Positions 41,101 to 53,100 of a stretch of DNA of 64,000 nucleotides are shown here, one piece after another (position 1 is the first letter of the stretch; every line of letters starts with the position of its first letter). The DNA is taken from NCBI RefSeq assembly GCF_016903815.1, contig NZ_CP069973.1; one strand, 5' to 3'. The stretch is from Escherichia coli (GTDB lineage Bacteria; Pseudomonadota; Gammaproteobacteria; Enterobacterales; Enterobacteriaceae). The position numbers were made by a program.

Positions 41101-44100
41101 CACTCTTCATCTGCTTTTCCTTGATGCTATAGGGGTGCTGAGACCGATAACGCATTTTGTAAACCATCCCTGTGAGAGCGAATATTCCGATATCTGGTTA
41201 TTAATTTATGATTCTTGTTTTATGTGATCGTGGTAGCGTTAATTCCGCTCATATATCATTGTAAAATATGGGTTTTATATGAATTATAATGCTTTCGTGA
41301 TAATACGCTGCGTGTATTAGGCGGAAAAAACTGATCTGGGGGATGTAGAAACTCAAGGAAGTAGCTATAATGCGCCCCGCCTCCATGTAGCAATCGAGGC
41401 GCGGAAGATCGTCGTCTCCGGTGAGGCGGCTGGACTTCAAATCCAGTTGGGGCCGCCAGCGGTCCCGGGCAGGTTCGACTCCTGTGATCTTCCGCCAGTT
41501 TACCTCTTCTGAACTCTCCCAATGTCAATAAATCTCTTCTAATCCCTTGTATATCAGTATTTATTTGTATCCAGAGGTCAACCTACTTCACCCCGTATCA
41601 AGTTTCTTTTGGGGGTACTTTAGGGGGTGTTATTTCCTATTGAAATACCAGCACCCCCATAATAGGAAAAATATGATATATAACAACGGCTTTTAACAAC
41701 ATCTTTGTTATACAAGGGGTGTATTGGGGGTATCAGGTTAGTTACTGGCAGAAATCCCCCTCAGGAACATGAATTCATCAAAAGCCGGAGGATGTCATGG
41801 CATTAACCGATATCAAAGTGAAAACCGCAAAACCCAAAGACAAACCCTATAAGCTTGCTGATGGCGGCGGTATGTATCTACTGATTAACACTAATGGTTC
41901 TAAATACTGGCGCATGAAGTACCGCTTTGCTGGTAAAGAAAAGATGCTTTCTATTGGCGTATACCCCGATGTAACGCTAGCCGATGCTCGCGAGAAACGC
42001 AGTGAAGCCAGGAAACTCCTCGCTGCTGGAGGCGATCCAGGGGAGGCAAAAAAGGAAGAAAAAATCGCGCAGCAAATGAGTCTGCAAAATACGTTCGAGG
42101 CTATTGCTCGCGAATGGCACCAGTCAAAAGCCGATCGGTGGTCATTACGCTATCGTGATGAAATCATTGATACCTTTGAAAAAGACATTTTTCCCTACAT
42201 TGGCAAGCGCCCTATTGCCGAAATCAAACCAATGGAGTTACTGGAAGCACTGCGTAAAATGGAAAAACGTGGAGCTCTGGAGAAAATGCGCAAGGTCCGC
42301 CAGCGCTGTGGTGAGGTGTTCCGCTATGCAATTGTTACTGGCCGGGCAGACTATAACCCAGCCCCCGATCTTGCCAGTGCTTTAGCTACACCGAAAAAAG
42401 TACATTTTCCCTTTCTTACTGCTAATGAACTTCCCCACTTCCTCAACGATCTGGCGGGTTATACCGGAAGTATAATCACTAAGACAGCTACTCAGATCAT
42501 TATGTTAACCGGCGTACGAACACAAGAACTGCGTTTTGCACGCTGGGAAGATATCGATTTTGAGACAAAATTGTGGGAGATCCCGGCAGAAGTAATGAAG
42601 ATGAAGCGACCTCATATTGTGCCGCTCTCTGAGCAGGTCATTATGCTATTTAAGCAGCTTGAACCAATCTCAAAACATCATCCCCTAGTCTTTATCGGTA
42701 GAAATGATCCCCGCAAACCAATTAGTAAGGAAAGCATTAACCAAGTAATTGAATTACTTGGATATAAGGGAAGACTCACAGGGCATGGTTTCAGACACAC
42801 CATGAGTACAATTCTGCATGAACAAGGCTTTAATTCCGCCTGGATTGAAATGCAGTTAGCTCATGTGGATAAAAATTCCATCAGGGGTACCTATAATCAT
42901 GCCCTGTATCTCGATGGCCGCCGTGAAATGATGCAATGGTACGCTGATTACATTGATTCACTCTCCAGCCGGGAAAGTTAAGTCAAAAATACTTTTCCCT
43001 GATGTTTTCCTCAATTAAGTATTTTATCCTCTGGCCTACAAGGCTGGAGGATTTTTGTTATTATATTATTTTTTGCGTCTTCAAACTTATTACAAAAACA
43101 TAATTAAAAGCAAATTGACATTTTTAAATTGGCAATTACAAAATACAGCCTTGCAGTTATTTCGATACCTTTAGCAAAGGAAAAGTTGATTCAGATATAA
43201 TTTAGCATTTCAATCATCTGACATCATTATAAAAAATGAGATTCACATAAAGATAAAATTATTGTTCTCAAGGAAAGCATGAAGGGGCTTTGTAAGCAAT
43301 ATTCATTCAGTGCCAAGACAGGACTTGATACACAGAATCTCAACTTTTATGCTCTCAGACTATATCACCACATGTTTTACAGGCTCAGAAAATGAACGAT
43401 AGATTATGCTTTGAAGTGCACGATAACCAGGGTTATTTCGTATTTCCGGATACCTGGTTTGGCCCATTGCTGGGGGAGTTTGAAGAAGTGCTTGATGCAT
43501 ACGACGCTGATGAAATCAGCGAGACGAGTTACATCAACAAACTCCGACGCCTTGCTCAACGGGAGCCGGACTTTATTGATATACACGCTCATCTGGCATA
43601 TGCATTTCTGGAACAGAATGCCCCGCGTAAGGCACTGAACGCCGCTCTTAAAGGACTGGCGGCAGGTAATCGTATCATCCCGGAAAGTTTCTGTGGTGAA
43701 ATAATCTGGATGCATCCCGAAAACCGGCCTTATCTGCGCGCGCTTTATGCAGCAATTCTCGCAAATGTGCACTTACAGCGCCATCAGGATGCGGTTATGC
43801 TCACTGATAAAATACTGGCATACAATCCTGAAGATAATCAGGGGGCTCGCTGGTTGTTGGGTTCAGAGCTGTTACGCACCGGCGATCATGAGCGAGCCTT
43901 CAGTGTACTGAAAGAGCATGCTGATGAATTTTCACCTTACTGGTATGAACTCGGTCTCCTGCATTTTCTGAACGGGGAACATGTTAAGGCCGCCACAGCT
44001 TTTCGCCATGGCTTTGCCACAAACACTTACATCGCAGAAATGCTGTGCGGAAATCTGCATCCATTTCCACTTGCTGTGTGGCATGACTTCTCCGGCTCTC

Positions 44101-50100: not shown

Positions 50101-53100
50101 TCGCCACTATTGAATACATATATTTATTTATAAAGTTTCTCTAAAGTCTTAATACCCATCCCATCAAAAAACAATGCGGGGTTGTTAAAATAACAACATA
50201 ACACTGTTTTCATGAGAATAGTAAAGCGTTTATTCAAAACCGTTTATAGCAACCCCATAAACCCAACATAGCAATTGAGTTTAAAAAGGAGATTTCATTG
50301 TCCCCTATCAATTAAACTTCATGTTTTTTAGTTTGTTTATAAAACAACATCATATCTCCTATAAAATACTCAGCAGTATTAAACCACCTTATCTTTAACC
50401 AAACTATTTATTCCGCAAGCCCACACTTATGGATATTTACCGTTGGTAATGACTCCAACTTACTGATAGTGTTTTATGTTCAGATAATGCCCGATGACCT
50501 TGTCATGCAGCTCCACCGATTTTGAGAACGACAGTGACTTCCGTCCCAGCCTTGCCAGATGTTGTCTCAGATTCAGATTATGTCGCTCAATGCGCTGAGT
50601 GTAACGCTTGCTGATAACGTGCAGCTTTCCCTTCAGGCGTGATTCATACAGCGGCCAGCCATCCGTCATCCATACCACGACCTCAAAGGCCGACAGCAGG
50701 CTCAGAAGACGCTCCAGTGTGGCCAGAGTGCGTTCACCGAAGACGTGCGCCACAACCGTCCTCCGTATCCTGTCATACGCGTAAAACAGCCAGCGCTGAC
50801 GTGATTTAGCACCGACGTAGCCCCACTGTTCGTCCATTTCAGCGCAGACAATCACATCACTGCCCGGTTGTATGCGCGAGGTTACCGACTGCGGCCTGAG
50901 TTTTTTAAGTGACGTAAAACCGTGTTGAGGCCAACGCCCATAATGCGTGCACTGGCGCGACATCCGACGCCATTCATGGCCATATCAATGATTTTCTGGT
51001 GCGTACCGGGCTGAGAGGCGGTGTAAGTGAACTGTAGTTGCCATGTTTTACGGCAATGAGAGCAGAGATAGCGCTGATGTCCGGCAGTGCTTTTGCCGTT
51101 ACGCACCACGCCTTCAGTAGCGGAGCAGGAAGGACATCTGATGGAAATGGAAGCCACGCAAGCACCTTAAAATCACCATCATACACTAAATCAGTAAGTT
51201 GGCAGCATTACCAAATCTGGAGCTACCACGCGTTGTTCTGGCTGGCGATAGGGATGTTGGGTATTGCGATGATTTGCCTGCTGTTTATTAAAGATATTTA
51301 GCTCACCAGTCTGGGCTAAGAAAAATCGGCGTGGCGCAAACAGAGCCATCCTCGCCATTTTTGCTATCATGCCTGCATACATAAACGACAAAACAGTATG
51401 CAGAGGGAAAAATGGGTTCCACCAGAAAGGGGATGCTGAACGTTCTGATTGCCGCCGTGTTGTGGGGAAGTTCAGGGGTCTGCGCGCAATACATCATGGA
51501 GCAAAGCCAGATGTCGTCGCAGTTTTTGACTATGACGCGTTTGATATTCGCCGGTTTGATTCTGCTGACGCTGTCATTTGTTCATGGCGATAAAATCTTT
51601 TCTATTATTAACAATCACAAAGATGCCATTAGTCTGCTGATTTTTTCCGTGGTTGGCGCGCTAACCGTACAGCTCACCTTTTTACTGACCATTGAAAAAT
51701 CGAATGCTGCCACGGCAACGGTGCTGCAATTCCTCTCACCGACGATTATCGTCGCCTGGTTCTCACTGGTGCGTAAATCCCGCCCGGGCATTCTGGTTTT
51801 TTGCGCTATTTTGACATCGCTGGTCGGGACTTTTTTACTGGTGACACACGGTAATCCGACGTCATTATCAATCTCTCCGGCCGCGTTATTCTGGGGCATT
51901 GCCTCGGCATTTGCTGCGGCATTCTATACCACCTATCCCTCAACGCTAATTGCCCGCTATGGCACGTTGCCTGTCGTCGGCTGGAGTATGCTGATCGGCG
52001 GTCTGATTCTGTTGCCTTTTTATGCCAGACAAGGGACAAACTTTGTCGTTAACGGCAGTTTGATTCTGGCGTTTTTTTATTTGGTGGTCATTGGTACGTC
52101 CCTGACATTTAGTCTGTACCTGAAAGGAGCACAATTAATTGGCGGGCCAAAAGCCAGCATTTTGAGCTGTGCAGAGCCATTAAGTAGCGCGCTGCTCTCT
52201 TTGCTGTTGCTGGGGATCACATTCACATTACCGGACTGGCTGGGCACACTGCTGATTCTGTCATCGGTGATTTTGATTTCAATGGATTCCCGTCGCCGCG
52301 CCAGAAAAATAAATCGTCCGGCGCGGGATGAGTGAGAATTACCAGCCAGGCACCGCGCCACCGTTAAAGATGGTTTCTGCCGCTTTAGCGACTTCGGATG
52401 ATTGATAAGATTGCAGAAATTCCTTCACGTTTTCTGCATTCTTATTATCTTCCCGTGCTACCAGAATATTCACATACGGCGAATTCTTATCTTCAATAAA
52501 TACGCTGTCGTGCACCGGAGAAAGCCCGGTCTGCTGAATGTAAGTGGTGCTGATAATCGCCACATCAACTTTGGGATCATCCAGTACGCGCGGGAGCTGC
52601 GCCCCCTCGAGTTCCATAATCTGCAAATGACGAGGATTCTCGGTTATATCCAGCGCGGTAGGTAGTAACCCTTTTCCCTCTTTCAGAGTAATTAGCTTCT
52701 CTTTTTGCAACAGTAAAAGCGCGCGACCAAGGTTGGTCGGGTCGTTGGGGATCGCCACTGTCGCGCCTTCTTTTATTTGCGCCACGGTTTTGATTTTTTT
52801 GGAATAACCCGCCATGGGGAAGACAAACGTATTTCCCACCGCTACCAGTTTATAACCATGCGCCTGATTATCTTGTTCAAGAAAGGGTCGATGCTGGAAG
52901 ACGTTCGCATCAAGCTCGCCATGATTTGTCGCATCGTTCGGTAGCAACGAACCGCTAAATCCTACCAATTCAACATCGAGGCCATATTTCTCTTTTGCCA
53001 CCTTTTTAGCGACTTCCGCGACATCTTGTTCTGCGCCATTAATAACGCCCACTTTAATGTGCTTTTCATCGCTGCTGCTCTGGTCGCAACCTGCCAGCAG

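Follow-up and report, generated by a model that had tools for sequence, protein, structure and literature searches.

Does an intact integrase gene beside a tRNA gene mark an island that can still leave the chromosome? The question is raised by a 64,000-nucleotide stretch of Escherichia coli DNA (hereafter the window; contig NZ_CP069973.1 of NCBI RefSeq assembly GCF_016903815.1), in which a P4-type integrase gene follows selC, the gene for tRNA-Sec, and foreign DNA runs on for some 9 kb before stopping at a copy of the insertion sequence (IS) IS1. We report that positions 41498-50444 are the integrase-proximal ~9 kb of a known E. coli selC genomic island. The window holds a truncated remnant and not a complete island: the left attachment site (attL) is present and the right one (attR) is absent. 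Probably, a module of the AGI-3/'Selc*B (CP4)' type was cut by an IS1 adjacent deletion in an ancestor that carried a fructooligosaccharide (fos) locus, and the resulting remnant is now fixed.

The island remnant and its two ends

Between 41300 and 58500 the window is 100% identical, over its full length, to many complete E. coli chromosomes, e.g. AR_0015 (NZ_CP024862.1). The annotation of that chromosome by the Prokaryotic Genome Annotation Pipeline (PGAP) gives the order yicI, yicJ, tRNA-Sec, integrase, TPR protein, hypothetical protein, LacI-family regulator (minus strand), MFS transporter, GH31 hydrolase, ykgR-like open reading frame (ORF) and IS1 (minus strand), followed on the right of IS1 by a 90-bp N-terminally truncated 'sugar transporter', yicL, nlpA and yicS. 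Beyond yicS come a SycD-like chaperone, a YopB/SseC-like translocator, a second IS1 and the inverse autotransporter gene air, with nepI after them. Foreign DNA starts at 41498, directly 3' of selC, the base from which the K-12 sequence differs, and GC content is ~42% across 41.5-50.4 kb versus ~50% in the flanks. The features that define the two ends of the remnant are as follows.

41403..41497, plus strand: selC (tRNA-Sec), intact (ARAGORN; Rfam RF01852, 83.8 bits)
41474-41497, plus strand: attL, the selC 3' end, core TTCGACTCCTGTGATCT (single 24-mer occurrence; alignment with the K-12 empty site and the BL21 attR)
41797..42981, plus strand: P4-type (DUF4102/Arm-DNA-bind_3) tyrosine integrase, intact, 394 aa (Pfam PF13356, PF22022, PF00589)
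50445..51212, minus strand: IS1, 768 bp, intact insAB' (terminal repeats GGTAATGACTCC... and ...GGCAGCATTACC)
51213..51302, plus strand: setC 3' remnant consisting of 2 nt of a Glu codon, 28 codons and a stop (translation compared with K-12 SetC)

The integrase ORF opens 299 bp after selC. Its Arm-DNA-bind_3, Phage_int_M and Phage_integrase domains all score over the Pfam cut-offs, and its catalytic set is complete by inspection (R241, H330-x-x-R333, H356 and Y366); against NCBIfam PRK09692 it reaches 317.9 bits, under the 434-bit cut-off. AR_0015, BL21, 32-4 and SCU-316 have the same integrase protein (WP_001218910.1), and the gene is frameshifted in GPEC1446. Identity to phage integrases does not exceed 51%, and the exact sequence falls within UniRef Q5I3N0_ECOLX, an entry that probably stems from the AGI-3 deposit (GenBank AY857617).

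At the other end, the element at 50445-51212 has the length, the ~23-bp imperfect terminal inverted repeats and the insA/insB' frameshift of IS1, and is annotated by PGAP as 'IS1 family transposase, programmed frameshift' (WP_094106546.1). The left joint reads ...ATATTTACCGTT/GGTAATGAC, and the right joint lies in setC codon ~366: frame 3 after IS1 translates as IWSYHALFWLAIGMLGIAMICLLFIKDI and a stop, which is the K-12 SetC C-terminus. With 90 bp remaining, called an N-terminally truncated sugar transporter by PGAP in the identical genome, setC is inactivated. The 9-bp flanks of IS1 are unlike (TTTACCGTT versus AAATCTGGA), so that there is no target-site duplication, of which 8-9 bp would be expected for a simple insertion; IS1 therefore marks a deletion joint.

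A second selC 3' end was searched for in the window in three ways. The 24-mer TTCGACTCCTGTGATCTTCCGCCA was found once at up to 3 mismatches (0 expected). The 16-nt core gave two 3-mismatch matches only, at 17582 and 21295, both left of selC and equalled in 2 of 100 shuffles. Finally, blastn-short with the selC 3' half and the BL21 variant of attR (see below) returned exact matches of no more than 12 nt, all with E >= 0.1, the longest measuring 12 nt to the left of selC and 10 nt or less to its right. The preliminary description of this DNA, made from the sequence alone, had placed a P4-family integrase ~300 bp downstream of tRNA-Sec, had the island stop at IS1 (50445) with ~29 setC codons beyond it, and had seen no second selC 3' end to the right; all three points hold, the setC codons numbering 28 and two-thirds. 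As to a directionality factor, neither the small intergenic ORFs examined in the remnant (37-49 aa) nor its two small annotated ORFs gave any Pfam match up to E 1, in a search that could miss a very short or atypical factor. Because attR and a recognisable Xis/AlpA-type ORF are both missing, integrase-mediated excision is probably not to be expected, and the island would be immobilised, as the preliminary description had supposed.

Uninterrupted relatives and the joints of IS1 across E. coli

In K-12 the empty site consists of selC, a 636-bp spacer with a yicT/rhuM remnant, and setC. A comparison with other selC islands, which the preliminary description had proposed as a way to the ancestral right end, led to that end in BL21. 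The BL21 island is 99.8% identical to the window across 906 bp up to the breakpoint and continues past it with ssb, IS debris, an Ag43-like autotransporter gene, the CP4-type genes cbtA/DUF5983/DUF957/DUF4942 and an intact setC. Just after DUF4942 stands TTCGACTCCTGTGATCTGCCA, the selC 3' end with a 3-nt gap. This attR, which consists of TTCGACTCCTGTGATCT, the gap and GCCA, is a degenerate 21-nt repeat (17+4 nt; positions 12829-12849 of the BL21 record, L004) located 636 bp upstream of setC, and the sequence that follows it is the one that follows selC in K-12. Window position 50444 corresponds to position 906 of L004 and window position 51213 to position 14582; in the window IS1 takes the place of the 13,675 bp between them, which comprise the distal part of the island, attR and the spacer as well as 1,095 bp from the start of setC. 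With coverage of at least 80% in 697 complete genomes, the BL21-type right junction is common among the right ends of CP4-type selC islands. We take the 16-17-nt selC core of the BL21 attR to match the short direct repeats of PAI I 536.

The joints on either side of the IS1 were next counted over 5,426 complete E. coli genomes. The GH31 end of the island is present in 330 genomes, the sequence is uninterrupted across the breakpoint in 122 (including BL21, E. coli C and 32-4), and the identical joint between island and IS1 is found in 202. The joint between IS1 and truncated setC (setC'), as in the window, occurs in 117 genomes. Seventeen genomes, referred to here as the KV7 type, combine the island-IS1 joint with a joint between IS1 and an IS5 fragment (IS5'), the latter being present in 243 genomes whatever stands on the left side of IS1. 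In none of the complete genomes is the island site occupied by a simply inserted IS1, flanked by a 9-bp duplication and followed by the BL21-type continuation.

The shared left joint has at least five right neighbours, namely setC', the fos locus, BREX genes, truncated nlpA (nlpA'), and an amino-acid antiporter with a decarboxylase, and across all right-neighbour classes the IS1 at this joint is the same to within 1 mismatch. In the fos class (KV7, ETEC1746 and E100341), IS1 is followed by the IS5 fragment and the fos locus, by ISSen4 and by an intact setC. The BREX class (M24, AVS0754 and B36; records L014-L016) has a pseudogene and then BREX type 1 genes (brxA, brxB and others), and since these genes follow the same island-IS1 joint, the selC island of some lineages carries phage defence distal to the sugar cassette. 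Truncated nlpA follows IS1 in GPEC1446, and in AF10 a basic amino-acid/polyamine antiporter gene is followed by an Orn/Lys/Arg decarboxylase gene. SCU-316 has kept the IS1-IS5' joint, and there the left side of IS1 abuts a truncated MFS gene, GH31 being gone. A GPEC1446-type nlpA deletion was considered as the source of the 85 genomes with the left joint only and was rejected, GPEC1446 being the only genome to match exactly; another three IS1-nlpA joints seem to have arisen independently.

In the KV7-type islands, the IS3-family element ISSen4 (47740-48942 of record L012) replaces attR and 90 bp of the backbone after it, and a search for attR in KV7 found none. Thus the fos-bearing KV7-type islands are one-sided as well, with another IS responsible.

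Probable origin of the truncation

The preferred course of events begins with a P4-type integrase that would have put the island into the selC 3' end. The integrase-proximal module comprises the integrase gene (int), the TPR protein, the LacI-MFS-GH31 sugar cassette and the ykgR-like ORF. Because the identical island-IS1 joint precedes fos, BREX or other sequences elsewhere, IS1 itself would originally have been internal to a larger mosaic island, right after this module, and the ancestor would have been KV7-like in its arrangement (int...GH31-ykgR-IS1-IS5'-fos locus...setC). One-ended intramolecular transposition of IS1 (adjacent deletion), directed rightward from its left inverted-repeat end (IRL) into setC codon ~366, would then have taken away ~13.2 kb: the modules distal to IS1, the right-hand boundary including attR or any residue of it, the spacer between selC and setC, and 1,095 bp of setC itself. 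What would remain is attL and a seemingly functional int with neither attR nor a directionality factor, inherited as ordinary chromosome.

Adjacent deletion is the likely mechanism, since, on whichever side of IS1 the change lies, one joint has been conserved and its partner replaced, with varying endpoints. IS1 adjacent (one-ended) deletions have long been known from the gal and lac regions, and Shigella genome reduction provides further classic cases. The window resembles them in that one end of IS1 and its flank are kept, the deletion begins exactly at the other end, there is no duplication and the endpoints among relatives are nested and variable; the mechanism would be the same, and only the targets differ, an island attachment site and a core gene having been removed here.

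Several observations weigh against this course of events. No sampled genome is the immediate parent, the K-12-like setC-yicL backbone of the KV7 type being ~2% off that of the window. KV7 is already without attR, ISSen4 standing in its place, so that loss of attR may predate the IS1 deletion. The right neighbour is assigned in all but about 67 of the 202 left-joint genomes. The loss of mobility is a deduction from the missing attR and Xis/AlpA, and the equation of the sugar cassette with the genes aec-35, aec-36 and aec-37 (see below) is a tentative one. Finally, an identical IS1 isoform sits in setC in the same orientation, 1 bp from the window joint, in two island-free genomes.

Given this setC IS1 in island-free genomes, the alternative mechanism to be weighed is RecA-dependent recombination between directly repeated IS1 copies, one in the island and one in setC, with deletion of the interval between them. 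The consequence would be the same either way, and we judge this route unlikely. In the two genomes concerned, O121 201805972 and VL7S7, setC contains a simple insertion of the window's 768-bp IS1 isoform, unchanged in sequence and orientation, with the 8-bp duplication GAAATCTG; further IS1 insertions are found in setC, nlpA and adeQ of IS1-rich genomes, and recombination between two IS1 copies would likewise leave no duplication. However, the setC joint of O121 201805972 and VL7S7 is 1 bp off, with IS1 followed by GAAATCTGG versus AAATCTGG in the window, and the K-12-like backbone, the single-nucleotide difference 17 bp from the joint and the lack of a selC island mean that neither genome is the parent. 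Recombination would also need a separate prior IS1 at each of at least five other right joints and at the SCU-316 left joint. Furthermore, the second IS1 of the same genome (IS1-B) shows a genuine one-ended deletion whose precursor, a simple insertion, is on record: in the sister genome WCHEC4533, IS1-B is a simple insertion in a sipC-like gene with the 9-bp duplication AGGTACTAG (L007 16425-22514), and compared with WCHEC4533 the window has lost 5,322 bp starting exactly at the right inverted-repeat end (IRR) of IS1-B (flanks 56501-56728 and 57487-63972).

The setC IS1 occupies 6249-7016 both in the O121 201805972 record (L017) and in the VL7S7 record (L018); the selC site is empty in these genomes, where nlpA, adeQ and the spacer between selC and setC contain additional copies of IS1. 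The setC position near the window joint is thereby indicated as an IS1 target hot spot.

A second alternative is that the island is still mobile, either because integrase uses a cryptic second site or because generalised transduction, or conjugative homologous recombination, carries island and flanks along together. Consistent with such movement, int is intact and encodes an identical protein across backgrounds, and the island is 99.8-100% identical while the backbone on its right differs by 2-6%, so that it has recently spread or been exchanged. Yet no att-like repeat of more than 10 nt lies right of selC in the window and no excision factor was found in the remnant, and movement with the flanks by homologous recombination needs no integrase and is compatible with site-specific immobilisation. 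We therefore regard continued mobility as very improbable. That the 9-kb block is a complete small island as acquired, with IS1 inserted at its natural right end and attR originally absent, is scarcely credible: compact and coherent though the block is (an integrase and one regulated sugar cassette), and shared in this exact form by 117 genomes, in 122 genomes the sequence runs on unbroken past 50444 to ssb and more genes of the island, IS1 lacks a target duplication, setC is cut short on the far side of IS1, and the window is without the spacer found behind selC in K-12 and behind attR in BL21.

Truncation of a larger selC island by IS1 would account for the 117 of 5,426 genomes with a selC-side integrase, no island boundary and a dead setC, and would make the sugar cassette, probably aec-35 to aec-37, a fixed chromosomal trait in these lineages. 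For annotation the lesson is that an integrase gene next to a tRNA gene, even if intact, is no proof of a mobile island. Current understanding of islands or of IS1 is unchanged. IS1 truncation is an ordinary route of island decay and fixation. What is mildly notable is one IS1 copy with at least six joints across the species, together with the IS1 hot spot in setC. The six joints are, rightward, those with setC, nlpA, the fos module, BREX and the antiporter/decarboxylase pair and, leftward, that with the MFS gene. We tentatively propose, at slightly less than an even chance, that this one IS1 after the GH31 cassette is a long-lived rearrangement hub that has repeatedly reshaped and immobilised the island through at least six joints, and that setC codon ~366 is a genuine IS1 hot spot. 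Should this be the case, these genomes would offer a natural, phylogenetically resolvable series in which to measure how often IS1 undergoes one-ended transposition in nature and which targets it chooses.

Cargo, known selC islands and neighbouring features

Between the integrase gene and IS1, the remnant carries the following genes.

43392..44435, plus strand: TPR-repeat protein, function unassigned, 347 aa (Pfam ANAPC3, 33.9 versus a cut-off of 27.2 bits)
44578..44808, plus strand: hypothetical ORF, 76 aa, no family match (PGAP annotation in the identical genome)
44833..45903, minus strand: LacI-family repressor, 356 aa, divergent from the transporter/hydrolase pair (Pfam LacI and Peripla_BP_3; annotation)
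46165..47466, plus strand: MFS transporter of the anion:cation symporter type (hexuronate/galactonate-like), 433 aa (Pfam MFS_1)
47481..49862, plus strand: GH31 alpha-glucosidase-like hydrolase, 793 aa (four GH31 Pfam domains)
50043..50144, plus strand: ykgR-like small membrane protein, 33 aa (PGAP annotation)

In the TPR protein, TPR_19 barely passes its cut-off (25.1 versus 25 bits) and TPR_16 and TPR_2 remain under theirs. The 90%-identity cluster of this protein includes many Shigella flexneri and S. sonnei entries, and there are hints that the int-TPR module may be shared with Shigella selC islands. The 76-aa ORF has no match in Pfam or PADLOC and the ykgR-like ORF none in Pfam; the TPR protein and the 76-aa ORF were considered as defence genes and rejected, neither having a PADLOC match. 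The MFS transporter hits NCBIfam TIGR00893 at E 4e-79, under the cut-off, and the names in its cluster include 'ACS family hexuronate transporter-like'. Among solved structures, the best relatives of the GH31 hydrolase are 6jr6 (E 4e-82) and glucosidase II, with YicI at E 4e-35; judged by its sequence, the hydrolase is a distant paralogue of the backbone yicI product encoded across selC. Its 90%-identity cluster includes a Kluyvera ascorbata protein, and Kluyvera may be a possible source of the sugar cassette. The LacI-MFS-GH31 cassette is intact and presumably functional. By annotation and domain scans, the region 41.5-50.4 kb contains int, the TPR protein, LacI, MFS, GH31 and small ORFs, and none of the virulence cargo of LEE (type III secretion system and intimin), SHI-2 (aerobactin) or PAI I 536 (haemolysin and fimbriae), which bears out the preliminary description of this cargo as metabolic or unknown rather than the virulence cargo usual at selC.

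The genes aec-35, aec-36 and aec-37, reportedly described by Chouikha and colleagues in 2006, are said to encode a LacI regulator, an MFS transporter and a glycosidase, to be strongly selC-associated and to be linked to carbohydrate use and to virulence in chickens. The LacI-MFS-GH31 genes of the window are candidates for aec-35 to aec-37 of AGI-3, in a comparison of gene families and gene order, both of which fit. The genes aec35-37 are marker genes of avian pathogenic E. coli with low prevalence (PMC10189387).

In the avian extraintestinal pathogenic E. coli (ExPEC) strain BEN2908, the selC island AGI-3 measures 49.6 kb and includes genes for the transport and metabolism of sugars (PMC2704930). 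The window resembles it in the selC insertion, the phage-type integrase and the cargo for sugar uptake and metabolism. In contrast to the 49.6 kb, five modules and direct repeats of AGI-3, however, the window has ~9 kb corresponding to module 1 only, and is devoid of the fos locus, the agn43/yeeR module and the right-hand repeat. The AGI-3 fos locus, consisting of genes for an MFS transporter, two GH32 enzymes, two unknown proteins, a fructokinase and a divergent LacI regulator, is matched in gene content by that of KV7 (PMC3325963). Module 5 of AGI-3 is agn43/yeeR (PMC4807369), which the right half of the BL21 island resembles. REL606 carries the prophage-like element 'Selc*B (CP4)' at selC (Archer et al. 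2011, PMC3032704). The first 9 kb of this element in REL606/BL21 are 99.8% identical to the window, with the same integrase protein and insertion site; unlike the window, it has ~12 kb more island (ssb, IS remnants, the Ag43-like autotransporter and cbtA/yeeT-type CP4 genes), the degenerate attR and an intact setC. LEE, SHI-2, PAI I 536 and the retronphage phiR73 share the tRNA-Sec 3'-end target and the integrase class with the window, which differs from the first three in being without LEE, aerobactin or haemolysin cargo. The island is thus a member of the described AGI-3/'Selc*B (CP4)' family of selC islands and IS1 deletion a textbook process, both of them already known biology.

To the right of the remnant, the backbone at 51213-53658 (setC'-yicL-nlpA-yicS) is ~94% identical to K-12, BL21 and KV7, with divergence peaking at 53.0-53.7 kb, beside a separate, horizontally acquired block of 39-41% GC that begins 2.4 kb right of the island and extends from yicS to nepI (~53700-64000); the preliminary description makes no mention of it. 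This block contains the type III translocator genes eicA and eipB and the gene air, and encodes a SycD-like chaperone, a YopB/SseC-like translocator and the giant inverse autotransporter Air with many ~290-bp tandem repeats. It is the eip/eilA/air locus and lies outside the integrase-bearing island, although the literature places that locus 'at selC' (PMC8148099). The island is 99.8-100% identical across genomes whose setC'-yicS backbone diverges, and the sequences suggest allelic replacement by homologous recombination around the eip block.

IS1-B (56724-57491, plus strand) lies within this block, differs from the first IS1 by ~7% and has no target duplication in the window. The deletion at its IRR end removed the rest of the sipC-like gene, the gene for an IpaD/SipD-like tip protein, eilA and 1,061 nt from the 3' end of air, so that this last ORF, annotated as intact, is C-terminally truncated in the window. 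An inversion between the two opposite IS1 copies of the window was also considered and rejected, the order and orientation of setC'-yicL-nlpA-yicS being those of K-12 and the copies differing at 51 positions or more.

On the left side of selC, a 7.2-kb insertion (~30120-37376) that is absent from BL21 separates yicH from yicI. It encodes a BglG-type antiterminator, fructose-type IIA, IIB and IIC components of the phosphotransferase system, two aldolases, a ROK kinase and a lyxose/mannose isomerase, and presumably resembles the frz operon of ExPEC.

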